Notes: generated from the sequence alone by a model not told the origin. 64,000 nt of DNA from an uncultured delta proteobacterium (GCA_963810935.1 CAWEPK010000016.1:32001-96000), one strand, 5' to 3'. Counted from the first letter of the stretch, positions 13,808-62,102 are shown. A program made the numbers and translations.

Positions 13808-14034
13808 GATCACGTACCTCCTTTGTTTGTAAGATATATTCGTCTGGCCTCTATGACGGTTATCTAAGCCCAAACATAAGTACCGGGATGCCGGCGCGTG
13901 TCTTCAATGCCGCTATGGCTTCGTTAATCGACAGCCTGTTCCTCTTGCCACGATATTTCACCTTGATCGTTATAAACCCGGGGCAGCGATTGCGTTCATT
14001 GATTTCGGGCCGCTCCGGGCTGCTTAAGCAACCT

Positions 14035-14208
14035 TCAGGCTACCGGGGGCGTTCCGCGCCTTCCGAAGACCAGCGAGACAACAAACAGAATGAGGAAAAC
14101 GATGAACAGCACCTTAGCTATCCATGCCGCAGTACCTGCAATCACGCCGAAACCGAAAACGGCAGCTATTATAGCTACAACCAGGAAAACGATAGCCCAG
14201 TAAAGCAT
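14035..14208 (-). CDS. DUF1328 (YtjA-like) small membrane protein
   Basis: [51 protein letters not shown]. Confidence 0.92.
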
Positions 14209-14333
14209 GAGCACCTCCTCGCTGTCAGTCCTTAGCGTTAACATAGGTATAAATGTGGATGTGTCAACCAATGGCCGGACTTACAGGCGCCTACTTAAAA
14301 CATAAACGGAGGAGCCTCATCCAAGCTATGTTC

Positions 14334-14729
14334 CTATCTTCCAGCGCCCGCACCGCCTGCGCCGCTTCCGTAGCCGCCGCCTGCGCCGCCCGTGCCCGTA
14401 CCTCCGTAACCGCCCGCACTGCCGCCTATACCGCCCGACTGGCCTCCGGCTCCCATCGGAGTGCCGAGGCCGCCGTAGCCGCCCGGCTGGCCGGGCGCGC
14501 TTGTCCCGCCATAGTTGCCGGGGGCACCCGGCTGTCCGGGCTGGCCCGGCCCTGTGTACGAAGCGCCGCCGCCCATAGAGCTTCCGGGCGGCGCGGACGG
14601 CAACGGTGCGCCTGCACCGCCTGCGCCTCCCGCGCTTCCGCCGACGCCCTGGGCCATCGCAATATCAAAGACGGCTAAGGGTAAGCAAATAAAAAGCCCT
14701 AGAAGACAGCCCGTAAAAACTCTTCTCAT
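14334..14729 (-). CDS. Small secreted glycine-rich low-complexity protein
   Basis: Signal peptide (…AMA|Q), then G/P/S/A-rich sequence with PGQPG and YGG repeats. AGGAGG RBS. Confidence 0.65.
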   Translation of the reverse strand: MRRVFTGCLLGLFICLPLAVFDIAMAQGVGGSAGGAGGAGAPLPSAPPGSSMGGGASYTGPGQPGQPGAPGNYGGTSAPGQPGGYGGLGTPMGAGGQSGGIGGSAGGYGGTGTGGAGGGYGSGAGGAGAGR

Positions 14730-14916
14730 CCCGCACCTCCTCGTTGCAATCGTCCGTTGTCGAAATTGTCGCCTTAATTCTATAGGTAAACATCCGTCGC
14801 ATTATGTCAATTCAGGGCTGATAAGGCACTGGGCAGGATTGGAGGGGGAAGGCAACGTAAAGATTTTGCGTGATAAAAAAATGCCACGTGTGCAATAATA
14901 TGCAGTCGGCGAAAAT

Positions 14917-16021
14917 ATGGAAAGAGACGAGAAAAAGACGCCATCGACCGCAACCGGCGCGAAGAAGCCCGGAGGCATCATCTGGCAGGACGCCGGGGCG
15001 CGGACCTTACGGGCCGATTTAACGGAAGGCTCGACGGGCCGGGAAGAGATAAGCCTGACTTTCGGCGTAGGGCGGCCCTCGCCTGAGGATGCCGGAGAGT
15101 CTGACCGGAGAACTCCTCGCACGTATAGTGATGACGCCTTTCATGGCCAAACGGCTGGCCTTCGCCCTGTATGCCACCCTGCAACGTCATGAGTCGCTCC
15201 ACGGCCCTATCTGGCCTGACGCAAGGGGCGGAAATCACCGGGCGCCGGAAAAAACGATGCGGGAAAAGAGCCTGCTCCTGGGACTCGTCAACGAGTTCCG
15301 GGTCGATCTCGGCTCGGAGCGTTCCTTCAAGGTTTTCAAGGGCATTGTCCTGACCGACCGTTTCCTCCTGTCTGTACCCGCTGGAGCGGTGCCCAGGGAG
15401 AAGATTCTCGATGTCTGCCGGAGGCTCGGCCTGCCCGACCCTTTTTGGGCGCCCCTACTGCAAAACCTCCCGGACGCGAAGTTCATCCATTTCGGGTTCG
15501 AGGATAACGAGAAATCGTCGGTCTACAAGGTCTACCTGGAGCTTCATTTCAAGAGCCGCCATTATCCCTTCCTTATCTATATAGGCTTTAAATGGGATAC
15601 CGCTGACACGGCCAGGCACGCCCTTGCGCGATATACCTGCTACCCCTCGTTCACGACAAAGGACATCATGGAGAAATTGTCCCTTGCCTTCGCGGGACCG
15701 GACGCGGAAGAATCCGCCGGGATCGCGCAGGGTATCGTAGGGGCAGCCGTGAAGGTCGCCCCGGAGATCTTTTACGTCGAAACGACTGAGGATGGGAACC
15801 CGAGAAAATCTTTCGACATGAACCTGTACGACGCGGCCCTCACGCTCGGGTCGATTGAGCCTTTGCTTATGCGAATGGGCGAGCATTACGGTCTCCCCCG
15901 GGAACAGTTCGCTGCGTTTGTCGACGACGTCAGGGCCAAGAGGCTGGGCCACCTGACCGGAGGCATCGACAGAGAAGGGCGTGATTTCTTTACCGTCCAT
16001 TTCGGGGTGGAGGAGTGTTGA
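14917..16021 (+). CDS. DUF3467-like N-terminal domain fused to an uncharacterised enzyme-like domain; 1-nt insertion near 15100
   Basis: Joining ORFs 14917 and 15089 gives IIWQD...STGREEISLTFG...LLARIVMTPFMAKRL...HESLHGPI, collinear with the stand-alone DUF3467 at 25834-26157. Confidence 0.75.
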
Positions 16022-16980
16022 CCGCAGGGGAGCGAGGTCTGGAAGGGCGTACGGGGCAGGGCAGGGAATCGACCGGCCCGGCGAGCGGACCCACGGTCAA
16101 GCTCGCGACGTACACGGTCATCCCTCTCTGGTACGGGTGCAACAACAACTGCGTCATATGTATGCTCGGGCCCGTCAAAGCGAAGCTGCGCACGGTAGAC
16201 CGGGACCTCTTCAAGCGGCTGGTCATAGGCATCGCGGGCGGAGACACGTGCAGGCGGCTGATCCTTTCGGGGGCGGAGGTAACGACCTTCGATGACCTGG
16301 AGGACTACGTCAGGTTTGCTGCGGGCATGGGCTGGTTCGAGACAATACAGATACAGACGAACGGGAGGAAGCTTGCCGACCCGGCTTATCTTCGCAGGCT
16401 CATAGAAGCGGGCGTCAACGAGTTCTTCATAAGCCTGCACGGCCCGAAAGACGCACACGACGCCATTTCGCGCGTCCCCGGCTCCTATGAAGAGACGATG
16501 GAAGGCATTCATAATTTGGCGGACTACCCGGTGAAGGTGCTTACGAACACGGTCCTGACGCGCCTGAATTATCCGTACCTGCCAGGCTTTTTTTCCGCGG
16601 TAGCGGCCGGCGGTGTTAGCGAGATGCACCTCTGGAACTTTTTCCCGATGGACGAAAGGGATGAAAAGGACCTGGTTGTACCCTTAAGCGACCTTATGCG
16701 GCTGATCGACAAAGTGGTCCCGCTTCTTGCGTCCAGCCGTAAACCGTTGGTGCTCAAGGCTTTTCCTGAATGTCTTCCCGTCCACGACCCGGTTTTTATC
16801 GACAACAACTTTCCCGCAGTCCTTATACCCGATGCTTTCTGGGGTTGCCTGGAAAAAAGCGGGTTCGGCTCCTGTATTTACAGGGAATCGTGCATGGCGA
16901 AGACGTGCTGGGGCCTTTCGCGGCCATACATCGCAAAATTCGGCGACGAGAGAAACATCCTGTCCCCGGTCGCACGATGA
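16015..16980 (+). CDS. Radical SAM enzyme with a C-terminal Cys cluster
   Basis: CNNNCVIC (CxxxCxxC), LSGAEVT, IQTNG, ISLHG...HDAI; C-terminal CIYRESCMAKTCWG. Confidence 0.9.
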   Translation: MLTAGERGLEGRTGQGRESTGPASGPTVKLATYTVIPLWYGCNNNCVICMLGPVKAKLRTVDRDLFKRLVIGIAGGDTCRRLILSGAEVTTFDDLEDYVRFAAGMGWFETIQIQTNGRKLADPAYLRRLIEAGVNEFFISLHGPKDAHDAISRVPGSYEETMEGIHNLADYPVKVLTNTVLTRLNYPYLPGFFSAVAAGGVSEMHLWNFFPMDERDEKDLVVPLSDLMRLIDKVVPLLASSRKPLVLKAFPECLPVHDPVFIDNNFPAVLIPDAFWGCLEKSGFGSCIYRESCMAKTCWGLSRPYIAKFGDERNILSPVAR

Positions 16981-16995
16981 CACGAAAAGCGCGCC

Positions 16996-17022
16996 GGACG
17001 TCCCGGCTTTCGCCGGGGTGAA
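16996..17022. repeat. Degenerate REP-like half element
   Basis: GGACGTCCCGGCTTTCGCCGGGGTGAA; the hairpin and 3' end resemble the right arm of the 4592-4692 element. Confidence 0.45.
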
Positions 17023-17028
17023 TGAACC

Positions 17029-17904
17029 ATGAAAGAGACATCGCGTTTCACGCCGGAATATGCGACTAAGGACGACAAGTTTACCAACTACGCCCTCTGG
17101 CCGTATGAGCCGGCCCTCGCCTTCGAGGGGAAGCTCAGGTCGATAAACCTGCTTTTTCAGTCGTTCGAGGTTGCCGGCGCGGATGACTCGATGTTCCGGC
17201 TTATCCGGCGCATAAGAGAGGCGGCGGGCATCGGCAATACGGTATACGGGGTCAAGCAGGCAGGCGGTGGCCTGAAGTGGGAGCTTTACTTTTACGACTA
17301 CGAAAGGAGCAGGAGGCAGAGGTCCATGTCCCTGGTCCTCGATGCCATAAAGCCCGTCGCGGCGAGCCGCGTTGTGCCCAACGAAAGTCTCCTCTATTTC
17401 ATGTTCTCCATGGATGTCGACAACGCGCTGGCCGCAGGAAAGAGAGACCTCGAAGAGCTGCACATGTATATCGGGAATCCGGGCAGCGTGGTTTCGTCGG
17501 GCATCTGTTATTCCGTCACCGAAAGCGGGAACAGGCTCGAGAATCTTTATTACTTTTTCGATGCCCGAAGGCAGCTCGATGAAGTCTATGCGAAGGCAGC
17601 CTGCTCGGCCCACGTCGATATGACGAAGATCGGAATCGATGCCATCGTCCGTCCTGAGTACAGAGATTGCAGGACGATCTGCATTGCCAACAAACAGGGC
17701 AGCGATTGCATCTACTTCGCCGGAGTGAGCATCGATGCCTTCATCTCTTTCCTGAAAGAGTTCGGCTACCCTGAAGAGACCGTTTCATTCGTCGAAAAAA
17801 ACAGGCCGATGCTCGACCACCTGGAATACGACGTGGGGTTCGACTACAGGATGGAGAGGGACGGCCTCAAGGTCCTCAAAAGCGGCTACTATGGAATATT
17901 CTGA
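17029..17904 (+). CDS. Uncharacterised soluble protein in the radical SAM/methyltransferase cassette
   Basis: 291-aa ORF overlapping the next gene, with aromatic-rich beta-strand-like segments (WELYFYDY, LENLYYFFD, YDVGFDY). Confidence 0.75.
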   Translation: MKETSRFTPEYATKDDKFTNYALWPYEPALAFEGKLRSINLLFQSFEVAGADDSMFRLIRRIREAAGIGNTVYGVKQAGGGLKWELYFYDYERSRRQRSMSLVLDAIKPVAASRVVPNESLLYFMFSMDVDNALAAGKRDLEELHMYIGNPGSVVSSGICYSVTESGNRLENLYYFFDARRQLDEVYAKAACSAHVDMTKIGIDAIVRPEYRDCRTICIANKQGSDCIYFAGVSIDAFISFLKEFGYPEETVSFVEKNRPMLDHLEYDVGFDYRMERDGLKVLKSGYYGIF

Positions 17905-18922
17905 GGAAAGGGATTACCTGCGCGTCGATTCTTTTATGGCCGGCGTCGTCGAGGCGGGGGCCGTGGCGTGCGCTCTCGAGACGGGCCTGATAGACCATCT
18001 CCTCGACCACGGGCCTGCCACGCAGGCAGAGATAGAAGAACGCCTGTCTATCGACGCGCCGGGCGCGGACATGCTGCTCGGCCTTTTGAAAGCGAACGGA
18101 GTGGTGAGCGAGAAGGACGGCAGAATAGGCCTGACAGCCGGGTTCGCCGACACCCTCCGATATCGCGGTCTTATGGAGACCAAGCTGGAATTTGCGCGCC
18201 TTGTCCTCTCCGATTTTACGGACCTTTTCGGCGCGCTTATCACCGACCCCGGCCGGTTCGTCCGCTCCTCCCGTACGTTCGAGCTTTTCTCCTACGGCCG
18301 CGCATTGGAATATACCCCGGAGAATTACGAGGCTACGCGGCGATGGGTGCGCTTCACGACGGCCCTTACGCGCTGCGAGGCCGCATCCTGCATAGCCCGG
18401 TACGATTTCGGCCGCCATCGCAGTATGCTCGATGTAGGCGGCAACAGCGGCGAGTTCGGCCTTCAGGTCCGTAAGAGACACGCTGGGCTGAAGGTCAGCG
18501 TTTTCGATCTGCCGCTCGTATGCGATATAGGCAGACAGCACGTAGCACAGGAGCCGGAGGCCGGGCGGATAAGCTTTATCGAAGGAAACGCCTTTGCCGA
18601 TCCGCTGCCGCCTTCCTTCGATCTAATTTCCTTCAAATCGATGCTGCACGACTGGCCGGACAAGGAGGCGTACTTTCTGCTCGAAAAGGCAGCCGCGGCG
18701 CTCGAGCCGGGGGGCTCCCTAATGATATTCGAGCGGGGCCGCCTGCCTTCGGGCCAAACGCTGCCTTATGCCTCCATCCCTATCCTGCTTTTCTTCAGGT
18801 ATTTCCGTGAACCGGGGTTTTACGAAGAGAGTCTGTCGGTCCTTGGACTTCACGACGTCGGGGTGACGGAGATAATGCTCGACTCGCCCTTTTACCTCAT
18901 TACGGGGACGAAAAAGAAATAA
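17891..18922 (+). CDS. SAM-dependent O-methyltransferase (Methyltransf_2 type with N-terminal dimerisation HTH)
   Basis: MLDVGGNSG, VFDLP, EGNAF, SMLHDW, LEPGG. Confidence 0.9.
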   Translation: MEYSEERDYLRVDSFMAGVVEAGAVACALETGLIDHLLDHGPATQAEIEERLSIDAPGADMLLGLLKANGVVSEKDGRIGLTAGFADTLRYRGLMETKLEFARLVLSDFTDLFGALITDPGRFVRSSRTFELFSYGRALEYTPENYEATRRWVRFTTALTRCEAASCIARYDFGRHRSMLDVGGNSGEFGLQVRKRHAGLKVSVFDLPLVCDIGRQHVAQEPEAGRISFIEGNAFADPLPPSFDLISFKSMLHDWPDKEAYFLLEKAAAALEPGGSLMIFERGRLPSGQTLPYASIPILLFFRYFREPGFYEESLSVLGLHDVGVTEIMLDSPFYLITGTKKK

Positions 18923-18966: not shown

Positions 18967-19710
18967 TTATTTCCTGTAAAAACGCACCCTGCATTTAAGG
19001 CCCGCCGGCAGGCCGTGACCGGGGTTGGGCAGCTCCACCCTGATGCCGAAGGTACCGCTCGCCGCGTCAATGACCTTGTCCACTATGACTACCCGTCCCG
19101 TGTGACTGCCGCCGACCGGGGCCTCCGGTCTCACCTCTGCGAGCATACCTTTCGTTATTGTCCCGTAGCGCCTCACCGGGACCACCACTTCAACGTTGAG
19201 CGGGTTGATCTGGGCCACCATCAGGATAGGCTTGTCGCCGACATAATCGCCGGCCGTCAGATCCCGCTTCACGACAACGCCGTCGACCGTGCTGCGGATG
19301 TTTCGCATCTCGAGCTTAGCTTTTGCCTCTTCGAGCACGGCTTCGCCTTTCTTCATCTCCGTCTCGATCTCGTCTTTCTCATTGGCGGAGATATGCTCTT
19401 GAGCGAATAGCTCCGCGTTGCGGTTGAGCTTGCGCTTACTGAAGCCGAGCTGAGCCTCCGCGAGATGAACGTTGGCCCTTTCCACTGACGCGCGCAGGGT
19501 AGCCAGTATCTGGCCTTTTTGTACGACGTCGCCGCGCTCGACCAGCACCTCGTCGATGATGCCCGGCACCTGGCTGCTGATTTTGACTTCGCGGTACGGC
19601 TCTATCATGCCGTCCAGGTACTCCGAGGGGCCGGTCGCTCGCGCAGAGGCGCAAAAAAGGACCGGAAGAACGGCCGCCAGAAAAATAGTCGCACGGAGAA
19701 TCCTGTTCAT
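18967..19710 (-). CDS. RND/HlyD-type periplasmic adaptor (membrane fusion protein)
   Basis: Signal peptide, lipoyl-like halves (VPGIIDEVLVERGDVVQKGQ, RSTVDGVV), coiled coil, DAASGTF, LPAGL. Confidence 0.9.
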   Translation of the reverse strand: MNRILRATIFLAAVLPVLFCASARATGPSEYLDGMIEPYREVKISSQVPGIIDEVLVERGDVVQKGQILATLRASVERANVHLAEAQLGFSKRKLNRNAELFAQEHISANEKDEIETEMKKGEAVLEEAKAKLEMRNIRSTVDGVVVKRDLTAGDYVGDKPILMVAQINPLNVEVVVPVRRYGTITKGMLAEVRPEAPVGGSHTGRVVIVDKVIDAASGTFGIRVELPNPGHGLPAGLKCRVRFYRK

Positions 19711-19723
19711 CGAACCTTCCTCT

Positions 19724-21712
19724 TTACTCGCCCAGCCCTGAAAACGAAAGAAGCGTGCCCATCCGCTCGTCCTGTTTGAGAAGCTCCCGTCTCGCCCTGG
19801 CGTGAGCGCGCTCCATCTTGCGCTGAGCATGTAATATAGCGATTTTCGAAACTAGTGTCCATAGGCACGGGAGGCGTCGCGGCACGCGCCTGGCTGCCCA
19901 TCCGAATATACCGGCCCTTCCGCCTTCCAGAAGCGAGTCCTCCATCGATAGGATCGCTTCGAAGCTGCCCGGGTCCCCCTGGCGGCCGCAGCGGCCTCCG
20001 AGCTGCCGGTCGATCCTTCCCGCGTCATGGCGCTCCGTCAGGATCACGTGAAGGCCGCCGAGCTCCGCCACACCCGGCCCCAGCTTTATATCCGTGCCCC
20101 TTCCGGCCATGTTCGTCGCTATCGTAACGGCCCCCGGCCGGCCTGCCTGTGCCACTATCGCCGCTTCGTCGCTGTCATTCTTTGCATTGAGCACGCAATG
20201 GGCCATGCCCGCCTCCGTGAACGACTTGCTGAGGCTTTCGGAGGCCGCGACGGAGCGCGTCCCGATGAGCACCGGGCGGCCCCTTTGGAAAAACTCGTCA
20301 ACCCGCTCCACGACGGCCATCTTCTTCTCGGACAGGGTTGGGGCCACGAGGCCGGGCAATGTTTTGCGCCTGAGCGGCTTTTCCGTCGGCACGCGCGCAA
20401 CGGCAAGGCCATAGACCGACCACAACTCCTTCCTCACCTCCCAGGCAGTGCCCGTCATGCCGCAAAGGTGCAGGTAACGGCGGAAGAAGCGCTGGTACGT
20501 GATGCGCGCCATCGATTCGACCTGCCGGGTCAGCTCGCAACCCTCCTTTATCTCGATGAGCTGGTGGATGCCGCGCTCCCACGAGCGGTCCGGCATGAGC
20601 CTTCCCGTATACTCATCGACTATCTGCACCTTGCTCTCTCTCACAAGGTAATGGATATCCGGCCGGAAGAGATAGAGGGCAGCGAGGGCCTTCCGTATAG
20701 TCTCCTCGCGCCTTATGGTCCCGGCCCACAGGGGCCCCAAGGCGGCCGAGGCTTGTCTGACGTGCTTGAGGCCGCTGTCTGTCAGGTCTATCTTATTTTT
20801 GTCCAGGTCCAGTATATAGTCGTTGCCCTCCCTCATGGCAAGGGCAAGCGACATGCCCTGGCGCAGGAAAGTCTCTTCATCGCCGGTGTCTCCGCCTCCC
20901 GATATAATGAGCGGAGTACGGGACTCGTCGACCAGTATGCTGTCCGCCTCGTCGCAGATGCCGAAATGGAGGCCCCGCAAAAGAAGACGGCTGTCCCTTG
21001 CATCATGCGAGTGAAGGTATTCCGCCTGCAAGCGCAGGCTGTCCGTTATAGGGCCGAGGGTCAGTCTGTCGCGCAGGTAGTCGAAGACCACTTCCTTATT
21101 GGTGCAGTACGTGATATCGCACCCGTAGGCCGCCTGCCGCTCCCCGGGGTCTTTGTCGTGGACGACGCAGCCAACGGACAGGCCGAGGGTAGCGTAAACG
21201 GGGCCCATGGCCTCTGCGTCGCGGGCGGTAAGGTAGTCGTTAACGCAGATCACGTGGACAGGGATGCCCGCAAGTGCGGCCGCACCCGCTGCAAGCGTGG
21301 CGGTCAGCGTTTTTCCCTCCCCCGTCTCCATCTCGGCGATCGTCCCTTTTAAGAGCAGAAAACCGCCCATCAACTGGCTGTCGAAATGGCGAAGTCCGAC
21401 GGTCCTCTCCGAGACCTCACGGATGATGGCGAACAGGCGCCCGGCCGGCTCGACATCGAAGCCTTTTATCCTCGCTTCCATGCCCAGGCGCCTCGCCTCC
21501 GCCCGTAATTCCACGTCGCTCATCCGGGACACGGCGGCAGCGTGCCTGCCGGCAGCGGTCACGATTTTTCTGCTCCGGCGGAACAGGTGCAGGGATAGCG
21601 CAACGGGCGCGCATAAGACCTTCGCTGCGCGCTCGACGGAAGAAAGCGCAGGGTCCTTCTTTTCAGGCCTGAGGCTGCGGGTTGCGGGGGGATGAAATAT
21701 CTGGCGTCCCAT
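19724..21712 (-). CDS. Accessory SecA-like DEAD ATPase lacking the C-terminal wing/IRA1/Zn-binding regions
   Basis: METGEGKT, VNDYLTARD, DEADSILVDE, GMTGTA, ATNMAGRGTDI, RIDRQLGGRCGRQGDPG. Only 662 aa. Confidence 0.92.
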   Translation of the reverse strand: MGRQIFHPPATRSLRPEKKDPALSSVERAAKVLCAPVALSLHLFRRSRKIVTAAGRHAAAVSRMSDVELRAEARRLGMEARIKGFDVEPAGRLFAIIREVSERTVGLRHFDSQLMGGFLLLKGTIAEMETGEGKTLTATLAAGAAALAGIPVHVICVNDYLTARDAEAMGPVYATLGLSVGCVVHDKDPGERQAAYGCDITYCTNKEVVFDYLRDRLTLGPITDSLRLQAEYLHSHDARDSRLLLRGLHFGICDEADSILVDESRTPLIISGGGDTGDEETFLRQGMSLALAMREGNDYILDLDKNKIDLTDSGLKHVRQASAALGPLWAGTIRREETIRKALAALYLFRPDIHYLVRESKVQIVDEYTGRLMPDRSWERGIHQLIEIKEGCELTRQVESMARITYQRFFRRYLHLCGMTGTAWEVRKELWSVYGLAVARVPTEKPLRRKTLPGLVAPTLSEKKMAVVERVDEFFQRGRPVLIGTRSVAASESLSKSFTEAGMAHCVLNAKNDSDEAAIVAQAGRPGAVTIATNMAGRGTDIKLGPGVAELGGLHVILTERHDAGRIDRQLGGRCGRQGDPGSFEAILSMEDSLLEGGRAGIFGWAARRVPRRLPCLWTLVSKIAILHAQRKMERAHARARRELLKQDERMGTLLSFSGLGE

Positions 21713-21727
21713 CGTTTATACCGAAAA

Positions 21728-23893
21728 TCAGACGTTCAACCGGCGCAAAAGGACACGGCGGATCGCACGGCGCCACCGGGACGACAGAGGCTCCGGGGTG
21801 TGGACGAACCGCACAAATACGCGCTCGCCCACCCCTCTGGCCTGCACGCCCGGCAGGAGGATATCAAAATTGAAAAGCTTCTCGAAGGCCTTGGGGTTGC
21901 GGGTCTCCTTCGGGTCGAGGGCCACGGAGCCTCCGCCCTGGACGCTCAGGGCCATGCTCGGCAGGTCCTTCGACGCAGCCGGGACTTCCCGCTGTATAGA
22001 GGCGGCAGTGACGGTGGGCAGCGATTCGGCGAGGCGCGCCTCGACCCTGCGCGTCCGGTGCCTGATATGCTCTACGTCTGCCTGGTTGACGATCACCCGC
22101 ACCACCGTCTTCGAGAAATCGACCACGTAGCCCACAGGCGTGCCCCTGTGAACGAACCTGCCCGGCCAGTCCTCCGACTGGGGCAGCAAAAAAGTCCCGG
22201 AGGCGGGGCTGCGCACGATCATCTCCGACATCCTCTCTTCAGCCCGGACCAGCTTCGCCCGGACCCTGCCCATCTCGTCCTTCAATATTTCCGTCTGCGT
22301 GCGGTCCGTCATAAGGCTGACCCTCATGCGGACGTCTACCTCGTTCAAATTTGCCTGTAGCACTTTCATCTCGGCCCGAAGGCCGGGGGCATCGCAGAAC
22401 AAGAGCGGCTCGCCCTTTGAGACACCCGCGCCCGAGACGGCAAGGACTTTGACGACAAAGCCGTCCGCGCCGGCGAAGACCTGCGATTCCTCCGGCACCC
22501 ATACGACGCCTTCGGCAACGGTCGATGAGGGCAGGGGATACCAGGCTACGAAAGCTGCAAGCGGGCAAATGACGGCTGCCGCAATAGCGGTCACCCGTAA
22601 GGCGTGCTCACGCATCTCGCTCGCCACGCGGCGTATGAGTTTCACCGTCGGCCAGACCAGCATGCTGAAGGCGGCCCAGAGGGCTAAAAGAACGCCTATC
22701 GCAAAAAACTTCGCGGCGACGAAAAGAAAGATGCTCACGGAGATGAAGATACGGTATGCAAAGGCAGCAATGGCATAAACCACAAGCCAGGGTTTTTCTC
22801 CCTGCGCGAGCACGGTCGAAGCGGCGCCCTTTATTCTGAGCAGGTAACGCTTGGCCAGATAGCCGACGTACTTGTTGGCCCTGTCGGCCAGGTTCGGGAT
22901 CTCCAGGTAGTCGGCGAGGATGTAATAGGAATCGAAACGGAGCAGGGGGTTGCCGTTTAGCAGCAGTGTAGAGAGCCCGGCGACGAATATGACGTTATAG
23001 GCTACGGTGCGCACCGTACCGGGTTCCGCGAGCGACCAGACGACAAGGGCAACAGACGCCAGGAGGAGATCGACTATGATCCCCGCGGCCCCGACGAACA
23101 TGCGCCTGCCTTTCTCCGGGAAGGCCGAAGCCCATGAAGCGTCCACGTACGGGAGGGGCATGAAGACGATGAGCATCACGCCCATCTCGTGGACTTCCCC
23201 GCCTAGCCTTTTGACTGCATAAGCGTGGCCGAACTCATGGAGTATTCTAGAGATAGGGTAGATGAGGGCTATGAGTATAAGGTTCTCCGCGCTTAATACG
23301 CGGTCCGTGACGTTGCTTGAAAGCCCCTGCCAGTGTACGCCCAGAAGCAGAAAGGCGATTGCGAGGAGCATGCCCCCGAGGACTGCGCCCGTTTTGCCGA
23401 GGAAGGGCCGGACGAGGAAGAGGCTCCTGTCCAGAAACGAGTTCGGGTCCCAGACCGGGAAGCTCATAGCCGCCGGAGACCGCACGATAGCCATCCAGCG
23501 GCTGCTCTTATCCTTCCTGCTCCTCTTGGCCAGATCTGCGATGTCGGGCAGCCTGTCCGATTGCAGCACGTCGTTCTGGTGCAGATAGGAGAGGAGGTTG
23601 ATTACCTCGCCTTGCGTCGGCATGTCGTCGCCTAGACGCTCGCAGGCCGCCTCCCATATCTCCTGCATAGTGCGCTTGCCGTCCATCAGGCCCACGATTG
23701 CGTAGGCTTCCTTCGAGAACCTGTGGAAGCGCCCGGTAGAGTTGTCCTGAAGGATGTACCAGTCGGTCTCCCTGTACACGTGATGGTGGAACTGCGTGTG
23801 GCTGCGCAGACGGGGGTACAGGCCGGAGACCCGGTACCACGACTCGCTGAAAAGGGTCTTTTGCTCTCCCGGAGTTTTTTTTAAGGACGCCAT
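21728..23893 (-). CDS. PqqD-like + M50 (site-2) metallopeptidase + HlyD adaptor fusion
   Basis: N-terminal three strands plus helices (WYILQD...FHRF...MDGKRTMQEIW), HEFGH, NGNPLLRFDSYY, several TMs, C-terminal lipoyl/coiled-coil/beta-barrel. Confidence 0.88.
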   Translation of the reverse strand: MASLKKTPGEQKTLFSESWYRVSGLYPRLRSHTQFHHHVYRETDWYILQDNSTGRFHRFSKEAYAIVGLMDGKRTMQEIWEAACERLGDDMPTQGEVINLLSYLHQNDVLQSDRLPDIADLAKRSRKDKSSRWMAIVRSPAAMSFPVWDPNSFLDRSLFLVRPFLGKTGAVLGGMLLAIAFLLLGVHWQGLSSNVTDRVLSAENLILIALIYPISRILHEFGHAYAVKRLGGEVHEMGVMLIVFMPLPYVDASWASAFPEKGRRMFVGAAGIIVDLLLASVALVVWSLAEPGTVRTVAYNVIFVAGLSTLLLNGNPLLRFDSYYILADYLEIPNLADRANKYVGYLAKRYLLRIKGAASTVLAQGEKPWLVVYAIAAFAYRIFISVSIFLFVAAKFFAIGVLLALWAAFSMLVWPTVKLIRRVASEMREHALRVTAIAAAVICPLAAFVAWYPLPSSTVAEGVVWVPEESQVFAGADGFVVKVLAVSGAGVSKGEPLLFCDAPGLRAEMKVLQANLNEVDVRMRVSLMTDRTQTEILKDEMGRVRAKLVRAEERMSEMIVRSPASGTFLLPQSEDWPGRFVHRGTPVGYVVDFSKTVVRVIVNQADVEHIRHRTRRVEARLAESLPTVTAASIQREVPAASKDLPSMALSVQGGGSVALDPKETRNPKAFEKLFNFDILLPGVQARGVGERVFVRFVHTPEPLSSRWRRAIRRVLLRRLNV

Positions 23894-25740
23894 GACCAGA
23901 ACCAAAGCCTGAGCCAGTTACGGAGCTTCAGCGTCCAGATGTATATGAGCTTTTGCCGGTCTACCGATATCTTCCCTATGCCCTCCATCCCCGGCCTCAG
24001 TGTGTTTGTCGCCTTGTCGAGGGCCGCCTCCACGCGGAAGCAGTTCTTCCCCTCCTGGGCGGTTGCCAGCGGGGTGATTTTGCGGACGACGAAGCCGAAG
24101 GTATCGGGCAGCGCCGAAAGCACGAGAACGCCCCTCTGGCCCTCCCGCACGCGCGCGATCTCGGCTTCGTTCACCTGAAGGATGAGGCGGTAGCCCGCCA
24201 GAGGCGCGATCTCGAACAAAACCTCCCCTTCTTCAACCGCCGACCCGACCTTCTGGCTCAGGTCGCCGGCGAGGACGAGGCCGTCGAAGGGGGCCTTCAT
24301 GCTGGTCCGCTGCAGCTTTATATCGGCGAGATCGAGTTGGGCTATGACCTGGTCGAGCTGGGCCTTGATAACGTTCGCCTTGGCCCGATCGTGCAGGGCA
24401 ACGGCCTCCTGGTGCTGCCTGAGGAGCTGGCTTTCCTGGCCCGCGAGGTTCGTTTTCTCCAGGCGCAAATCGCGCTCGTCGAGGGTGCACATGACGCCTC
24501 CCTCGCGTACCGTGTCGCCGTGGCGGACATAGGCCTCCCGGATGTACCCTTTGAACGGGGCGGCGACCGTACGGCGAACCGATCCTTCGAGCGTCGCGGT
24601 TGAGGTGATCCGGTATTGGCCTTCGGCAAAGCTGAAAAAAGCGACCGCGCAGGCCAGAAGGAGCAGGATAAGCTTCATTCCGAGGTGGCCGGGACCCATA
24701 ACGCGCTTGAGCGCACTCAGCGCCGCGTCGTATGCGTATTTCGGGAAGGAAAGGGCTTGTACCCTTTTTCCTTCCAGTGCAGGGGCGGCCAGGGCGAAGA
24801 TGCTCTTGCAGATATTGACGTCGTCTGTATCGAAAGAGTCTTCTCCGTTCCTCTCAAGCGTGAGCGCCCCGTAATAACGGCCGCTCGCGTAAAGGGGAAC
24901 GGTGAGCATCGCGTTTACGCCGTACCGGCCCGCAAATGCTTCGTGGCTACGCGTCACGAGGGCGGGAGAGCCGGGGGGCGATGGATAGATGACCTCCGTG
25001 CCCTGCTGGATGGCTTCGTCCATCACGGTGCCGAGGGAGCGCACAAAACCCGTACGCTTGTCGAAGAGGGCGCTGTGGGAAATCGCCTGTATGCGGACTT
25101 TATGCTTTTTCAGGAAGCCGAGGCTGACCCGGTCGCACGCAAGACGGGCGGCGACGCCCGTTGCGAAGGTCATGCACGCGCCGTCGAATTTTTCCTGGGA
25201 GAGCACGTCGGCCAGAAGGTCGATTGCCGAGCGCAGCCGCGACATGACTGCCCCGTCTTCCCGCGTCTGCTGCCTTCTGAAGAAAAGCTCCAACAGGGGC
25301 ATACCCCACTGGAGCTGCTCCATGACCGGCCTTAGCTCTTCTTCCGACCTGACCGCCACCTCGATTGCCGCCACCCCATGAAGCCGGTCGTCGAAGAGAA
25401 GGGGGCAGGCGACCCCGAAAGTGCGCAAGGCTTGCCCGTCGCCGGGGGGTGCGGGCAGCTCGGTAAGAAGCGAGCGCCGTTGCGCGAGGCTGTTTTCGGC
25501 AACCTCCGCGAGCCGCTCGCCGTCTGCCTCCGGAGATGCTGACCAGAAGGCGATAGGCACAAAGCCGTCGCCACCGTCCTGTTGCATGACCAGGACGGCC
25601 TGTAGGGTGGAGCCGATCAGAGAAGACTGGAGGGCAAGCCAGCTTTGGGAGTACTCTTCGAGATTGCCTGCTGAGGCGATCCCCGTCCAGTGGGCAGACT
25701 GCTCCCTTGCGCCTTCCTCTCCGACACGCTCTTCAATCAC
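23881..25740 (-). CDS. GAF-domain HlyD-family adaptor
   Basis: Two GAF-like segments (VACPLLFDDRLHGV; LTVPLYASGRYYGALTLE), one TM, then an MFP (APFKG, APFDG, LRPGMEG). Confidence 0.88.
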   Translation of the reverse strand: MIEERVGEEGAREQSAHWTGIASAGNLEEYSQSWLALQSSLIGSTLQAVLVMQQDGGDGFVPIAFWSASPEADGERLAEVAENSLAQRRSLLTELPAPPGDGQALRTFGVACPLLFDDRLHGVAAIEVAVRSEEELRPVMEQLQWGMPLLELFFRRQQTREDGAVMSRLRSAIDLLADVLSQEKFDGACMTFATGVAARLACDRVSLGFLKKHKVRIQAISHSALFDKRTGFVRSLGTVMDEAIQQGTEVIYPSPPGSPALVTRSHEAFAGRYGVNAMLTVPLYASGRYYGALTLERNGEDSFDTDDVNICKSIFALAAPALEGKRVQALSFPKYAYDAALSALKRVMGPGHLGMKLILLLLACAVAFFSFAEGQYRITSTATLEGSVRRTVAAPFKGYIREAYVRHGDTVREGGVMCTLDERDLRLEKTNLAGQESQLLRQHQEAVALHDRAKANVIKAQLDQVIAQLDLADIKLQRTSMKAPFDGLVLAGDLSQKVGSAVEEGEVLFEIAPLAGYRLILQVNEAEIARVREGQRGVLVLSALPDTFGFVVRKITPLATAQEGKNCFRVEAALDKATNTLRPGMEGIGKISVDRQKLIYIWTLKLRNWLRLWFWSWRP

Positions 25741-25833: not shown

Positions 25834-26157
25834 CTACTTGGGACCCGCCAGATCGAGGTCAAGCGTTCCAAACCGCGCTTCGTAGTCGGAAACGATCCGA
25901 TTAAGAAGCAAGGAAAGGCGTTTCGCCGCATAAGCGTTGAGAATGACGCGGTCCGTCAACTGCACGATGAGCTCGTTCTGGCCTGTCTGCCACGTCTGGT
26001 TCGTACCGAACAGGACGGTTACCTCTTCTCGCGTGCTCGACACGTTGCAAACGTTCGCGTAGGACGTCTTGAGGTTCGAATCGTCCCATTTTATCCTGAG
26101 CGTCCCATCCTGCTTAGGGGCGTCCTGTTTCGTTGCCGCGTCATCTTCTTTTGCCAT
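25834..26157 (-). CDS. DUF3467-family small cytoplasmic protein
   Basis: IKWDDSNLKTSYANVCNVSSTREEVTVLFG...RVILNAYAAKRL...YEARFG. AGGAGG RBS. Confidence 0.85.
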   Translation of the reverse strand: MAKEDDAATKQDAPKQDGTLRIKWDDSNLKTSYANVCNVSSTREEVTVLFGTNQTWQTGQNELIVQLTDRVILNAYAAKRLSLLLNRIVSDYEARFGTLDLDLAGPK

Positions 26158-26204
26158 TTGCACTACCTCCTGATACTTATTCTGGCCGGGACATAAGCCG
26201 CTCT

Positions 26205-26440: not shown

Positions 26441-29400
26441 TCATTTGCGTGTGCCCGTCCGCTCGCTGCCTTTATCGATTACCTTTCCGCCGAACCATGG
26501 CAGGAAGCGGCTCCTCTTACGCTCTTCTTTAAGTCTCTTGAACCCGTCACGGTCGAGGAACACATCTTTGCGGGCAGCGGATGCGACCGCTGCGCCAAAG
26601 GCGACAATGCCGTCGTCGAGGCGCTGCTTGTCCTTCTCGTTGGCGGCGACCGTCACTTGCACGTCCGTTTCCTGCATCCCCTGGCTGTCTCCTCCCTGCG
26701 GCGATTGATCGCCTTGCTGGTTGCCGTCTCCGGCGCCCGGCTGGCCCTGGTCGGTCCCCTGGCCCGTCGGCGAGGTCGATTGTCCTCCCTGGCCTTGCGA
26801 TTGTCCTCCCTGTTGGGTCGATTGCTGCCCCTGACCGGTCGTAGACTGCTGCCCGGGCTGAGTCGTGAAACCGGTAGAGCCCGTATGGCTCGACTGCTGC
26901 TGCTGCTGGCCCTGGAGGTCCTGATTGTTTGTGCCGGTATTCAAAGACGTAGAGAACGTGTTTGTCGAAGACCCGGTTCCGGTGAACGTGCCGGTTCCGG
27001 TGAACGTGCCGGTTCCGGTTCCCGTTACTCCTGCGATCAGCCTGATGGGCGATGTAGACGACTGCATGCCCGATTCGCCCCATTCGCCCGATTCGTTGCC
27101 TTGTGCGCTGTAAAGGGTGGAGAGCGGGCTCGCGAGGGGGTCGTCGCCGAACCAGAAGCAGGCGACCTGCGTCGTGCGCCCGTTTTCGACGACTATATAG
27201 GCGAACCGGCCGATCATGATGTCGCTGTTGAAATTACCGACAAATGCTGAATTACCGATACCGCCGATCATGATGTTTCTTCCGCCGCCTCCGCTCAACC
27301 AATCATGTCCGCCAAGCTCGATGTCTATGCTCTCTATGATCTCGCTATTGGCTGTCCATGCGATAGTGCCGACGCTTTCGCTATTGCCGGTCCAGGCGAC
27401 CCTGCCCCCGGCCCCGAAGATGATGTCGTTACCTGTGCCACCGAAGAGCCAGTTGTCGCCCGCGCCTCCTATGATGAGGTTGTTGCCGCCCGCAACACGG
27501 ATAACATCGTCCCCGCCCAGATAGTTATCAACGGAGTAGGCATCCTTGGGGAAGAGTCCCTGTTGATCGAAATCGATTTCCCCACTGTGTCCGATGACTA
27601 TGCTCGCGCTCGACGTCCTAGGGTCGGGCGTTGTCGTACCTCCCAGGGTGATCGTGTTGCTGCCGTATCCTCCGAAGACATAGTCGCTGCCGTTGCCCGC
27701 TGTGATGGTGTCGTTGCCACCTATCGACGAATTGGTCGTCTGGGCAGTGCCAAGCACGCCGGGTGACTGGTAGCTCACCTGGCCGTTGCTGCCGAAGATA
27801 ATGTTGCTGCCGTTTCCTGCCGTGAGCGTATTCGACCCCGAGCCGCCGAAGATGATATTGTTGCCGTTGCCGGCGTTAATGATGTTGTTCGACGCAAGCT
27901 GCACATCGATGCTCTGAGCGAGGCTGGGCGACCCGGCCGGGAAGAACTGGATCGACCCGTCTTCGCCGAAGATGATGTTATTGCCCGTGCCTGCAAGGCC
28001 CGCGGTAATGTTGTCCGAGCCCGTGCCGCCGAAGATGATGTTATTGCCCGTGCCCGCCGTGATAGTATCGTTGGCTCCGTTGGTCGCGTAGGTCGATTGG
28101 ACGGTGCCCAAAACGCCGGGCGACTGGTACTGCACGGAGCCGTTATCGCCAAAGATAATGCTGTTGCCGTTGCCTGAAGTGATGGTGTCCGCTCCGGAGC
28201 CGCCGAAGATGATGTTTTTGCCGTTGCCTGCCACGATTTGTTCATTCTGGGCAAGCTGCGGATCGGTTGTTTCGATCAGGCTGGCAGTGCCGGTTGTAAA
28301 GTACTGAATTAGCCCGTCGTGACCTATGATGATGTTGTTGCCCGTGCCTCCGAGACCGGCGGTAATGCTGTCGGAGCCGGAGCCGCCAAATATTGTATTA
28401 TTACCGGTGCCGGCCGTAATGGTATCGTTTGCCCCGACACCCGTGTTTGTAGTCTGGACCGTGCCCAGCACGCCGGGCGACTGGTAACTCACGGAGCCGT
28501 TGTCGCCGAAGATGATGCTGCCGCCGTTTCCGGTTGTGATCGTGTCCGCTCCGGAGCCGCCGAATACGATGTTGTTGCCGTTGCCGGTGTTGATGGTCAC
28601 GCTCCCCGCTAGCTGCGGGTCGGTAGTCTCGATCAGACTGGCCATGCCGTTGGAGAAGAACGTCATGCTTCCGTCATGACCCGTTATGACGTTGTTGCCT
28701 TCGCCTGCGGTAACCGAGTTAGTTCCGGTGCCGGAGGTCCCGGCCATGATGATGTTGTTACCGTTGCCCGCGATTATCGTTGCGGTGCCTCCCACGGTCG
28801 CGTTCGTCGTCTCTACGGAAGAGAGGAACCCGGTTGCAGCATAGTCCACCTCGCCGTTATGGCCGAAGACGATGCTGTTGCCGTCGCCGACCTTGATATT
28901 GCTCGTCCCGTCGCCACCCGTGATAACGTAATTGCCGCTGCCTCCCACACCTGCATTTATCGTGTCGTTCAGGCCCGTGCCCGGGTCCGTGGACTCGAAA
29001 GTCTGCATTACCGACGAGCCTGAGTAGAACCGGATTAGGCCGTTTGCGCCTGCGATGTAGGAGTTGCCGCTGCCCATCGTGATATGGTTCACGCCGGTGC
29101 CGCCGAAGATGTAATCCGTGCCCGTCGTATCACCTGCGTCGATGGTGACATTGCCGCCCGTCGTCGGGTTGGTTGTCTCCATCAGGGCGTAGAGGCCGCT
29201 CGTCTGGTAGTCGATCTCGCCGTTGTGGCCGAAGATGATGTTGCCGGCCGTGGTCGATCCGACGCCCGCATTTATCGTGTTCGCTCCGGATCCACCAAGG
29301 ATGATATTGCTCCCGATGCCGACATTTATCGTGTTGTTGCTGCCTACTGTGGGCATCGTCGTCTTTATAGAGGTAATGATGCCCGAGGTGTTGTTGTACG

Positions 29401-32400
29401 TTACCGTCCCGTCGTCGCCCAGCACGATATTATTGCCGTTACCGAGGCCGATCGTGTTACCTCCGGCCGCGCCGATCACGATGTTGTTGCCGTTTCCGAG
29501 ATTTATGGTGTCGCCCGTGCTCTCGTTGGGGCTGGTGCTCTGGATGTTCGTTATGATGCCTGCCGCCGTGGCGGCCACCTGACCGTAGCCCGCTATGACG
29601 ATGTTGTTGCCGTTGGCGCCCGCGTTTATGACGCTATCGCCTGCTTCGGCCAGGATAGTATTGTTCCCGCCGCCGGGGGTTATTGTGTCTGTGCCGGTAG
29701 TTGCCGTGTCGTACGTTGTCTCGATGAGTGTGGCGGGATGGACAAGGTTGTCGGTCTGGTTGATTGTAAGATCGGTCAGGCCCGGGTTCAGGGCAAGCCG
29801 TTCTGCGTAGGTCAGGCCGAGGCTCGTGATCAGGTTGCCTGATGCGTCGCGATAGTCGATCTCGCCCTGGTGGGCTATGATCGTGTCACCTCCCTGGCCG
29901 CCCAGGATCGTACTGCTCCCCGTTCCGCCGAAGATGACGAGTGGCGCGGTCGCGGCAGTGCCGTTTACATTGGAGGCGCTGGCGTTCAAGTAGTTGGTGC
30001 CGTTGCCGAGGTTGACGGCGAAGATGCCGCCCACCGAGTTATTGAGGCTTATCGCGACGTTATTGTTGCCGTTCCCCATATTGAAGACTGTGGTGGTCTG
30101 AAGAACGGTGGTCCCTACCACATCCGGCTCCAGGTTGCCCGTCACGTTCAGGGTATTGCCGTTGTTTCCGAGGAAGAACTCCATGGATTCGATGTTGTGG
30201 TAATCCAGGACGCTTCCCGGCGTCGTATTGTAGCCGGTCAGGTACATCCCCGCGCTCGTGCCGTTGAGCGTGAGGTTGGCAGTCGCCGCGGTGTCCCAGA
30301 TGGTTACGGCATCGATCTGCTGTGCTTCGTTGACGAAGAAATTCGGAGACAGATCGTTGAGGACCCAGCCGCTGCCGCTCGCCGGCAGCGCCGTCCAGTT
30401 CGACTGTATCTCATACGGGTCAAGGAGGGTAAGGGTTGTCTGGCCGGTGGTAGTACTGGCTGTCTCACCCGTAATCTGCCAGAAGCGACCTGATGCGCCG
30501 CTGTTGCCCGTGGGAGTTGTGGTGATCTCTATAGTCAGGCCTATCAGGTTGCTCAATGGCAACTGCGTGCTTGACTGGTAGATCTCGTCGAGCCATGTCT
30601 GGATATCCGTAGTCAGGACGTTCATTGTGTCGGTCGCACCGGATGTTCCTGTGCCGGAGAAAGACTGTACGATTCCATCCGTGGCCGCCACGTTCGTTTC
30701 GCCCGGCAGCATTACCGGAGACTTGATCGCGTCTTCCGGGGCAACCCCGCCGTCGATGGTGAGGCTCCCTTCTATCGAGCTAAGGTTGTAGGTCGGGGCG
30801 GGCAGCGTCGAAAGGTTGAGGTATTCAACCGCCCCGGTTGCGGATCTTTGGCCGGCGTCGATCTGCGTGCCGGTGGGCACGGCCCCGTCTAAGATGAAGT
30901 GGTCGCCGCCGAGGCCTCCGTAAAGCGTTACGTGTGCGATTGCAGGCGTGCTCAGTATATAGAAGGTGTCGTTGCCTTCCGCGCCGTCGATAATGACCGT
31001 CTGGATGTCCTCGTAAGTTATCGTCCTACCCGCGCCGTAAATGGCGTCATCGGTCACGACAAAGGTGTCGTCGAACTCCGTGGCGATGATCCGCATGATG
31101 TTGTTGCCCGCGCCGCCGTCTATCTCTATGGGGGCGTTTGCTACGTAGGTGATGGTGTTTGTCCCGGTCCCTTCATTGACGCGCGAGAGGACCGAGTTCT
31201 CCTGGACGAAGGACCTGATCGTGAACGAGTCGTTTCCTGCGCCTCCTACGAGGTCCAGGGTCGCCACGTTGCGGTAGACGGTGAAGTCGTTAGCGCCGTT
31301 GCCACCAATTATCGCCGTGTCATAGCTTACGCCGTTGCTCAGGTATCCCCTCGTGGTCAGCGTCGTCGTGAAGCTGTCCCCCGCCGCGATATTCGCATTG
31401 AGCGCGTCGCGCAGGGATTGGAAGATCTGGCCGACCTGGTACGTGTTATCGCCGCCTCCGCCGTAAATCGCCGTCTCGGTCCGGTTGTCGTCCAGGGTCA
31501 CGGTGTCGTTGCCGGTCCCCGTCTTGACCACTAGGTTGCTGATGGACGCAGTGTAGTTGATCCTCTCCACGTCGGATCCGTCGGGGTTCAGGTCTGCGAC
31601 GAACGCGTAGCCGGTAGGGTCGGTGCTGGCCCTAAGGAGCATGTTGTCCGCCCCGCTCGTGCCGTAAACGTTGAGGGTGGTGCCGGCCGTGAGCGGTGTA
31701 GCCGAGAGCTGGATTGTATTCGTATCGACGACGATCACGTAGTAAGCTTGTCCGTTGTTCAGGCCGCCGATACTTCCGCCGTTGCTATCGAACATCACGG
31801 TCGCCCCGTTCGTAAGCCCGTGGGAGTCGTATGTAATGGTAATGGGGCTATTGTCCGTAATGCTCACTTGCGCAGCCGAGAACGTGAGCGTCTGGAAAGG
31901 ATAGACGAGGCTGTTCATCGAGCCCGATGCGCCGTATCTCGTGAACGCGATCGGATTATCTTTGAGTGCGTCTTCCAGGGTGGACGCAAGTTGTATCTTA
32001 TCCGTGCCGGCAACCGGTATCACGTAGTAGATCTGCCCGTTATTCAGGCCGCCCACGTTGTTCAGGTAGCTGCCGTCATTCTCATAGCGAACCATTTCGC
32101 CTAACGTGTAAGTGTTGCCAGGGAGGGTGATCATACTATGTGTCAGGTCCACGACCGACGACGAGGACGGGTCGAAGGTCATGCCGACGGAGACGAGGGT
32201 GTTCGTCGAGCCGGATGCGCCGAGGCTCGTGAGCGTGATGGGATTTCCTGCAAGGGCGTCTTCCAGGGTGGTTGCAAGTTGTATCTTATCCGTGCCGGCA
32301 ACCGGTATCACGTAGTAGCTCTGCCCGTTGTTCAAGCCGCCGACGGCGGAGCCTCCGTTGGTCTCGTAGGTCACCATCTGGCCCGGCGTGTAAATGTTGC

Positions 32401-61960: not shown

Positions 61961-62102
61961 ATACGGGCCTGCCCCTTTCTGCACTCAGCCCACTTTTTAC
62001 AGTCCCGGGCCTTTCGAATGCATCTGTCCTATGTACGTGAAGAATAAACTTCAAGTCGATAAAATGCACCTCTACCACCGCAGCTAAAAACTGTAATGAA
62101 TC

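Follow-up and report, generated by a model that had tools for sequence, protein, structure and literature searches.

Which substrate do four enzyme genes serve when they stand opposite an operon that exports a giant protein? We examined this question in a 64,000-nucleotide (nt) stretch of DNA from an uncultured delta proteobacterium (GCA_963810935.1 CAWEPK010000016.1:32001-96000; hereafter, the window), in which a cassette of four tightly spaced plus-strand genes (14917-18922) converges on a minus-strand operon encoding, in order, a TolC-family channel, a giant RTX-repeat protein, a stand-alone DUF3467 protein, a GAF-domain HlyD adaptor (GAF-HlyD), an M50 metalloprotease fused to HlyD (M50-HlyD), a SecA-like ATPase and a small HlyD adaptor. 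The cassette genes encode a fusion of DUF3467 to a predicted ABBA (prenyltransferase-barrel, PT-barrel) domain (gene 1, 14917..16021), a radical SAM enzyme (gene 2, 16015..16980), a second protein of predicted ABBA fold with 291 amino acids (aa; gene 3, 17029..17904) and a class I O-methyltransferase of the COMT/BchU type (gene 4, 17891..18922). Genes 1 and 2 overlap by 7 nt, a gap of 48 nt follows, and genes 3 and 4 overlap by 14 nt. A preliminary description of this DNA had placed the radical SAM, third and O-methyltransferase genes in this order, converging on the secretion genes, and all of them were found where it had put them. Judging from structural models, the barrels of genes 1 and 3 are two new families of a known fold, wired into a giant-protein export system.

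The DUF3467 fusion and the two predicted PT-barrels

As assembled in the window, gene 1 is broken. Frame 1 from position 14917 reads MERDEKK...GRPSPEDAGES up to 15099, and frame 2 continues from 15101 as LTGELLARIVMTPFMAKRL. The single T at 15100 is extra, because an intact homolog (P0002; 94% identical, 367 aa) reads ...EDAGELTGELL... through this point without an additional letter. We also compared contigs from four public sequencing runs (a single study, possibly including the source sample) over positions 14600-15600; each run provided one contig across 15100, all four omitted exactly one letter there, and no further indel was found in that kilobase. Three of these four bridging contigs differed from the window at only three other letters. 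Because all four runs omit the T, the frameshift is an assembly error and gene 1, of 367 aa without the spurious letter, is whole in the sampled population; the possibility that it is a pseudogene was ruled out on the same evidence. The 'one indel near 15100' of the preliminary description thus corresponds to this one letter.

The DUF3467 domain of gene 1 (approximately residues 1-98; 14917..15211) is the part that the extra T interrupts. The N-terminal ~100 residues of gene 1 aligned with the stand-alone DUF3467 protein of the window without gaps over 103 residues (BLASTP, 25% identity, E 5e-12), and a profile-profile comparison of the two gave a probability of 99.8% (E 2.5e-30, 93 columns), which bears out the collinearity proposed earlier. 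In searches with PF11950 (cut-off, 25 bits), the stand-alone protein scored 77 bits and P0002 scored 30.7 bits over profile positions 1-90, and the broken second ORF (open reading frame) of gene 1 alone scored 20.3 bits over positions 57-90. The motif that had been read from the window agrees with the columns that are invariant across 24 stand-alone copies (W, REE, FG, R, AKRL, E and G).

We then considered whether the fusion is conserved. In a collection of 5.8 billion proteins, 265 homologs of gene 1 were found, and among the 120 that were listed, 101 had PF11950 and were mostly 344-440 aa long. In addition, we searched 80 loci from 80 species genomes with the window proteins by tblastn and classified the arrangements; the fusion occurred in 51 of the 73 loci with a readable upstream part. 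The fusion is therefore conserved among homologs and is no local accident.

The fusion resembles in concept those of the RRE/PqqD type in pathways for peptides that are made by the ribosome and altered after translation (RiPPs), where a small binding domain is fused to a modifying enzyme and also stands alone in the cluster. Unlike those domains, DUF3467 is predicted, in the model of P0002, as three strands and one long helix, and a search of PDB sequences gave no relative of it (best E 0.21). A query of the ESM Atlas with the stand-alone protein returned DUF3467 clusters only, and a search for longer DUF3467-containing proteins, in itself weak evidence, gave no candidate at E ≤ 0.001.

Several variants of the architecture were observed. 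DUF3467 followed by two tandem PT-barrels forms single ORFs of ~680-708 aa in six loci (L010:9920-12007, L011, L025, L035, which is the same as L081:5484-7520, L064 and L080), and five loci (L061, L065, L068, L080 and L012) carry two stand-alone DUF3467 paralogues besides the fused copy. Long extensions before DUF3467 in L004, L019, L065 and L067 gave no extra Pfam domain and were therefore taken to be start-codon artefacts. One 450-aa ORF (L006) joins the O-methyltransferase to a C-terminal DUF3467, which may reflect a stop codon lost in assembly.

The remainder of gene 1 (approximately residues 108-367; 15240..16021) belongs to no Pfam family; for both gene 1 and P0002, Pfam-A gave DUF3467 only, at E values up to 1, and NCBIfam gave no match. 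We accordingly turned to an AlphaFold model of P0002 built with 29 homologs (mean predicted local distance difference test score, pLDDT, 84). By Foldseek, the closest structures were LimF, PagF, FunA and bacterial DMATS (E ~1e-5, probability 1.00), and in a second structural comparison the listed top 50 were all ABBA prenyltransferases (Z 15.6-13.0 over 223-268 residues). Strands are paired in the model at 132-154, 187-209, 218-242, 285-302 and 342-365, in agreement with the ten antiparallel strands, arranged as alpha-beta-beta-alpha repeats, that define an ABBA barrel.

The preliminary description had called the third protein unknown. It indeed belongs to no Pfam or NCBIfam family (no Pfam-A match even at E up to 1, and no NCBIfam match), and by its model it is a second ABBA-fold protein. 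The model (pLDDT 89.6) contains five strand hairpins; among 48,161 PDB representatives, the top 19 matches were all ABBA prenyltransferases (Z 13.2-8.6; the next match scored 6.3), and the best Foldseek match was AmbP1 (E 1e-7). Homologs of gene 3 more than 50% identical to it number 758 and are spread across phyla. The two barrels show no sequence similarity to each other (profile-profile probability 0.2%), and neither gene matched the Trp_DMAT, PTase_Orf2 or cyanobactin prenyltransferase models. On these models, the C-terminal part of gene 1 and the whole of gene 3 are proteins of the ABBA (PT-barrel) prenyltransferase fold, and prenyl transfer would be the candidate activity of both.

The conserved residues may fit such an activity. 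There are 28 invariant columns in the gene 1 family, including K138, R148, K204, Y206, K225, Y239, Y286, R296, Y304 and R352, and 59 in the gene 3 family, including K76, R93, R96, K222, K284 and many Tyr residues. In both barrels the invariant Lys, Arg, Tyr and acidic residues occupy alternate positions on predicted strands (in gene 1, for example, K204-x-Y206-x-E208 and R296-x-S298-x-D300). Such alternation is what the diphosphate-binding lining of known ABBA barrels would show, and the invariant basic residues and Tyr are candidates for a lining of this kind.

The two remaining enzymes were assigned by their domains. Gene 2 matched PF04055 (65.3 bits; cut-off, 29.5), with CNNNCVIC (CX3CX2C) at residues 42-49 and a Cys-rich C-terminal stretch, CX8CX5CX4C. 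It reached the cut-off of no named NCBIfam family; its highest score was to HxsC4, and the matches to the HxsC4 and HxsC maturases of the His-Xaa-Ser system were partial (92.7 against 500 bits and 57.8 against 267.9 bits, respectively). Gene 4 matched PF00891 (86.2 bits; cut-off, 22.3) and has an N-terminal dimerization/winged-helix domain, for which PF08100 and MarR_2 remained under their cut-offs. In one locus the cassette is expanded (L006:13052-19671): gene 1, the radical SAM gene and gene 3 are followed by four more radical SAM genes, of which two have a UPF0004 (MiaB/RimO-like) N-terminal domain, one encodes 511 aa and one is B12-binding; the 450-aa ORF of methyltransferase and DUF3467 comes after them.

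Linkage of the cassette to the export system

The export operon lies on the minus strand of the window. It begins with the TolC-family outer-membrane channel (60605..61984) and the giant RTX-repeat protein gene (26441..60547), which has a LEPR-XLL-like leader (MQFEVLERRILPS) and DUF4347. The stand-alone DUF3467 protein (25834..26163; 109 aa, PF11950) is the first gene after the giant gene, and it is followed by GAF-HlyD (23881..25740), M50-HlyD (21728..23905), a shortened SecA-like ATPase of 662 aa with SecA_DEAD, PP_bind and P-loop domains (19724..21712) and, as the last gene, the small HlyD-type periplasmic adaptor assigned by domain searches (18967..19830). The N-terminal 430 aa of M50-HlyD aligned end to end with the model of the daptide intramembrane (HExxH) metalloprotease, NF041824 (146.7 bits, cut-off 300; E 1e-42), and the protein has a weak PqqD-like head. 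By sequence, M50-HlyD is thus predicted to be a RiPP-type leader protease joined to a periplasmic adaptor. To our knowledge, this exporter system is widespread, has had no experimental study, and has among its cargo some of the largest bacterial proteins.

The 80 loci provide the main evidence that the cassette and the exporter belong together. Exporter genes or a long RTX ORF were present in 46 of them, and 19 of the other 34 loci lie on contigs shorter than 12 kb; several of these 34 still hold TolC, the N-terminus of a LEPR-type giant or a stand-alone DUF3467. At least two of three exporter markers were found in 30 of the 80 loci, and in 16 of the 29 in which both flanks reach at least 8 kb. 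The tie to the secretion locus put forward in the preliminary description is therefore largely sustained, and loci of the cassette without that locus are for the most part not the rule.

This linkage takes several forms. In 13 of the 80 loci, a long RTX-repeat ORF, which usually runs off the edge of the locus and exceeds 3000 aa, ends directly 5' of gene 1 on the same strand. The giants that adjoin the cassette in four loci (L010, L019, L059 and L048) have a LEPR-XLL-type leader in common. Exporter genes lie downstream of the cassette on the same strand in 14 loci; for example, one locus (L053) has the order giant, gene 1, radical SAM, gene 3, methyltransferase, DUF3467, GAF-HlyD, M50-HlyD and SecA-like ATPase. 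The barrel stands immediately behind the small HlyD gene that closes a DUF3467/GAF-HlyD/M50-HlyD/SecA-like/HlyD operon in 11 loci; these barrels are unfused except in two loci (L021 and L065), five of the unfused ones start within the HlyD gene (an overlap of ~25-28 nt with its stop), and ends of RTX ORFs were found upstream of such operons. Six loci show the convergent layout of exporter and cassette that is seen in the window. Gene 1 is accompanied by all of the radical SAM gene (≥40% identity), gene 3 and the methyltransferase in 28 of the 80 loci, and the PT-barrel occurs without the other three enzymes in at least 10 exporter operons.

In a quick maximum-likelihood tree of all 80 barrel domains, nine unfused in-operon forms fell into one clade (support 98) and the four forms from Nostocales into another. 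The fusion label changes ten times on this quick tree, and at least two of the changes are forced by well-supported branches. One 6-kb contig labeled as a metagenome-assembled genome of a Methanobacteriota archaeon (L062) carries a bacterial-type DUF3467-barrel gene with radical SAM and methyltransferase matches; it groups with a Desulfobacteraceae sequence in the tree and may represent a binning error or gene transfer.

Phylogenetic profiling, which the preliminary description had proposed, gave a concordant result. We used 401 genomes of the phylum of the window and an M50-HlyD ortholog (E < 1e-100) as the exporter marker. The barrel domain of gene 1 was present in six genomes and the marker in 11; the marker occurred in four of the six genomes with the barrel, compared with seven of the 395 without it. 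Relatives in this sample are not independent, and the four double-positive genomes represent four families. Gene 3 was found in four genomes, all of which also carry gene 1.

Individual genomes show how far the linkage extends. In the genome of L002, the exporter, a stand-alone DUF3467 and a DUF4347 giant are located 24-60 kb from the cassette on the same contig; in that of L001, the exporter, the stand-alone DUF3467 and the DUF4347 giant were not found. Unrelated genes adjoin the cassette in L001 and L004. In a genome that is 99% complete in 180 contigs (G243), no exporter marker was found, and the cassette is preceded by an RTX ORF (at least 1636 aa, beginning at the contig edge) and then a well-conserved stand-alone DUF3467. 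In a Synechococcus genome, an unfused homolog next to an ORF of at least 3253 aa lies ~20-30 kb from the exporter marker. Thus, the DUF3467-bearing and the in-operon forms go with the export system, and the distribution of the entire family is somewhat wider.

The exporter half of the window (18967-25740) corresponds to the 'secondary SecA_DEAD' locus with HlyD, M50 and GAF proteins described by Kamneva, Poudel and Ward (2015, PMC4452313). Their main text uses none of the terms radical, methyltransferase, DUF3467 and prenyl, and its description of the locus thus includes neither the enzyme arm nor the link through DUF3467. A full-text literature search, with subscription journals outside its coverage, found no publication on an enzyme arm with this exporter or on the role of DUF3467; papers retrieved for DUF3467 and LEPR-XLL were unrelated, and among those on SecA, giant proteins, HlyD and M50 none concerned the module by title or abstract.

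Candidate substrates of the cassette

The reading that we favor, and to which we give not quite an even chance, is that the cassette is an arm for tailoring in the cytoplasm, tethered by DUF3467, which prenylates the giant RTX cargo and modifies it further. The PT-barrel of gene 1 would transfer a prenyl group from a prenyl diphosphate to side chains of the unfolded giant cargo or of its N-terminal region, and this cytoplasmic step would come either prior to or during delivery of the cargo to the channel by the SecA-like motor. The DUF3467 domain would tether the gene 1 enzyme to the cargo or to the export complex that contains DUF3467, and the products of genes 2-4 would be optional add-ons that extend the modification. 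Gene content, modeled folds, conservation of the fusion and synteny are shown above, and catalysis, donor, substrate and docking are inferred. The cargo or a part of the machine would be the simplest candidate substrate for a lone, coupled PT-barrel in the export operon or one directly behind the cargo gene, and the occurrence of the barrel alone in at least 10 operons suggests that it can act on the cargo and a common prenyl donor, which are present in every such system. DUF3467 is found free at the head of the exporter operon and, as a paralogue of that protein, fused to the enzyme; in genomes that have neither a DUF3467 nor the exporter, the enzyme is without it, which fits a coupling module.

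More tentatively, and with failure the likelier outcome, this reading might be extended to the proposal that, in bacteria of many phyla, RTX-type proteins of megadalton size are lipidated (prenylated) and tailored further in the cytoplasm by enzymes of RiPP style, with DUF3467 as a portable docking module. In this extended form, which we hold just as tentatively, DUF3467 would be both a separate subunit of an exporter that is SecA-driven, ABC-less and linked to TolC, and a tag on the first enzyme.

Known systems offer partial parallels. The cyanobactin peptide prenyltransferases (PagF, LimF, KgpF, PirF and DciF, together with PatF) share with genes 1 and 3 a small PT-barrel, predicted here, of ~260-290 aa, and aligned with them over 223-237 residues (gene 1, Z 13.7-15.1; gene 3, Z 9.5-10.3). 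They are likewise encoded beside the gene for a ribosomal substrate and the genes for its export and processing. However, identity in the structural alignments is 7-14%, the barrels described here have no Pfam family, and gene 1 has an N-terminal DUF3467; moreover, the candidate substrate is a protein of ~11,500 aa rather than a short peptide, and the cassette has no precursor peptide, heterocyclase or PatA/PatG-type protease.

The indole and aromatic ABBA enzymes (bacterial DMATS, CymD, PriB, IptA, AmbP1/AmbP3, NphB and CloQ) have the same predicted barrel and include the best Z scores for gene 1 (15.6 for 5-DMATS and 15.4 for CymD). They use free small aromatics and belong to metabolite clusters, whereas the barrels described here are shorter, unrelated to them in sequence and located in protein-export operons.

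In logic, the proposed arm resembles the activation of HlyA-type RTX toxins, on which the acyltransferase HlyC/CyaC acts before type I export by HlyB-HlyD-TolC. There, too, a cytoplasmic lipid-transferring enzyme is encoded beside an RTX cargo and an HlyD/TolC exporter. The two are not homologous: a PT-barrel would take the place of the toxin-activating acyltransferase (TAAT) and presumably a prenyl diphosphate that of the acyl carrier protein (acyl-ACP) donor, and the export system has a SecA-like ATPase and an M50 protease instead of an ABC transporter, and an N-terminal leader instead of a C-terminal signal.

Several observations weigh against the favored reading. The PT domain was absent from seven of the 11 exporter-bearing genomes in the 401-genome sample; because only four of the 11 have it, the arm is dispensable. 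The exporter marker was not found in three of nine cassette genomes examined (G243, G253 and the genome of L001), and in the genome of L004 the exporter, DUF3467 and the giant lie on a contig other than that of the cassette. In four genomes of Nostocales, including one complete chromosome, the homolog has no DUF3467 domain and there was no match to M50-HlyD or DUF3467; this branch also lacks the giant gene, and one of its homologs stands beside B12-radical SAM, polyketide-cyclase and chorismate-synthase genes. A second fusion of methyltransferase and DUF3467 was not found among the best 150 of 8911 matches in 1.84 billion representatives. Gene 4 is a small-molecule-type methyltransferase (PF00891), and its relatives are fused to NUDIX (P0246), to a P-loop kinase (P0272 and P0329) and to a Trp-halogenase fragment (P0324). 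A P-loop kinase-like protein of ~204 aa, with weak PRK/uridine-kinase and AAA matches, is encoded in or beside the cassette in 22 of the 80 loci (e.g. L021:11101-11715 and L023:11209-11823) and is absent from the window. The type of the methyltransferase, its fusions and the kinase-like gene look like metabolite chemistry, and most characterized ABBA enzymes act on small aromatics.

These observations could indicate that the four enzymes make a small prenylated and methylated aromatic compound (for example, an indole or phenol), which HlyD/TolC would export or the GAF domain of the adaptor would sense, and that the giant protein is left unmodified. We regard this as unlikely to be the answer, and at the same time as a serious rival to a protein substrate. 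Besides the COMT/BchU-type methyltransferase with its fusions, the kinase-like gene and the exporter-free Nostocales homologs among metabolic genes, it is favored by the small aromatics that most of the solved ABBA enzymes among our structural matches use and by the precursor search. Antisense shadows aside, no conserved family of ORFs of at least 45 aa, other than enzymes and exporter components, accompanies the cassette in the 80 loci, as was to be expected from the earlier remark that no classical RiPP precursor is visible. However, a small-molecule product sits poorly with the protein-type DUF3467 domain that the first enzyme carries in 51 of 73 loci, and with a barrel that, without the other three enzymes, shows translational coupling to the exporter operon in at least five loci and that directly follows the giant in 13; a multi-step pathway is not expected to shrink to one enzyme at a kept position. 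The MiaB-like and B12-dependent radical SAM genes in L006 and L013 are compatible with either a protein or a small-molecule product.

Three further explanations were considered. The target might be the small DUF3467 protein itself, for instance the invariant Trp of its I-x-W-D motif, or a part of the machine, so that modified DUF3467 would serve as a lipidated adaptor or carrier. All 24 stand-alone proteins share Trp 26, which lies just before the folded core, the matching stretch has low pLDDT in the gene 1 model, G243, in which no exporter marker was found, keeps its well-conserved stand-alone DUF3467 beside the cassette, a Trp halogenase is linked to the methyltransferase family, and many ABBA enzymes prenylate indole. 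We nevertheless consider this improbable, in view of several fused members without the Trp-containing N-terminus and of a structural role of the Trp that is equally likely.

It is quite improbable, in our estimation, that the two PT-barrels are non-catalytic and bind a hydrophobic ligand or unfolded segments as chaperone-like holders of the cargo. PatF, an inactive cyanobactin barrel which illustrates that a PT-barrel can lose catalysis, is among the structural matches (Z 15.1 for gene 1 and 9.5 for gene 3), and neither barrel belongs to a known sequence family. However, the 28 and 59 invariant columns, with charged and aromatic residues at strand positions, are typical of active sites, and the barrels travel with a radical SAM enzyme and a methyltransferase. 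Finally, the cassette might be unrelated to the exporter and adjacent to it by chance, given that the two units of the window converge and share no promoter and that three close relatives (L001, L002 and L004) have no exporter gene within 10 kb. The synteny largely refutes this explanation, which we judge very improbable: adjacency recurs in several phyla and in several arrangements, the exporter of L002 lies ~24 kb away on the same contig, the DUF3467 domain is shared, and the genome counts (4/6 versus 7/395) point the same way.

There is a substantial chance that the system is something categorically new. Two uncharacterized families gain a predicted fold and a testable activity, and DUF3467 gains a hypothesis of enzyme-export coupling. 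If the extended form of the favored reading is true, the cassette would represent a new post-translational modification system for giant secreted proteins and give a function to DUF3467. A lipidation step could account for the retention of giant proteins at the cell surface or for their insertion into it. Should the product be a small molecule, the biosynthetic cassette would be new and of wide distribution, and its two novel families of prenyltransferases would be of interest for natural-product discovery. Under either reading, the gene set is small enough for direct expression and assay.

Flanking sequence and reading-frame changes

Upstream of gene 1, ~1 kb (13874-14916) separates it from a BON-domain gene and has no family match. 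A putative promoter-like site (plus strand, 14870..14899; GTGATA-18 nt-AATAAT with TG), a match to the consensus only, ends 18 nt 5' of the ATG of gene 1. Three ORFs of 115, 141 and 127 aa in this stretch (13888-14898) were considered as precursors and rejected; among the 80 loci they were matched only in L003, from whose DNA the stretch differs by many indels that are not multiples of three. The stretch is probably non-coding or fast-evolving. The whole window had no match in Rfam.

Reading-frame changes occur elsewhere as well. The locus L003, a 94% relative, has uncompensated 1-nt indels of its own where the genes of the window are intact, at positions matching 17360 (gene 3), 18497 (methyltransferase) and 24927 and 25730 (GAF-HlyD) of the window, and a 167-aa entry in the protein collection (P0230) is a fragment of its gene 3. 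In the window, four frame changes split the giant gene into ORFs of 3613, 4679, 799, 271 and 2166 aa. Because the T at 15100 proved to be spurious, these are probably assembly indel errors in one gene of ~11,500 codons. The pattern of indels in L003 and in the giant gene is consistent with consensus errors of long-read assemblies.

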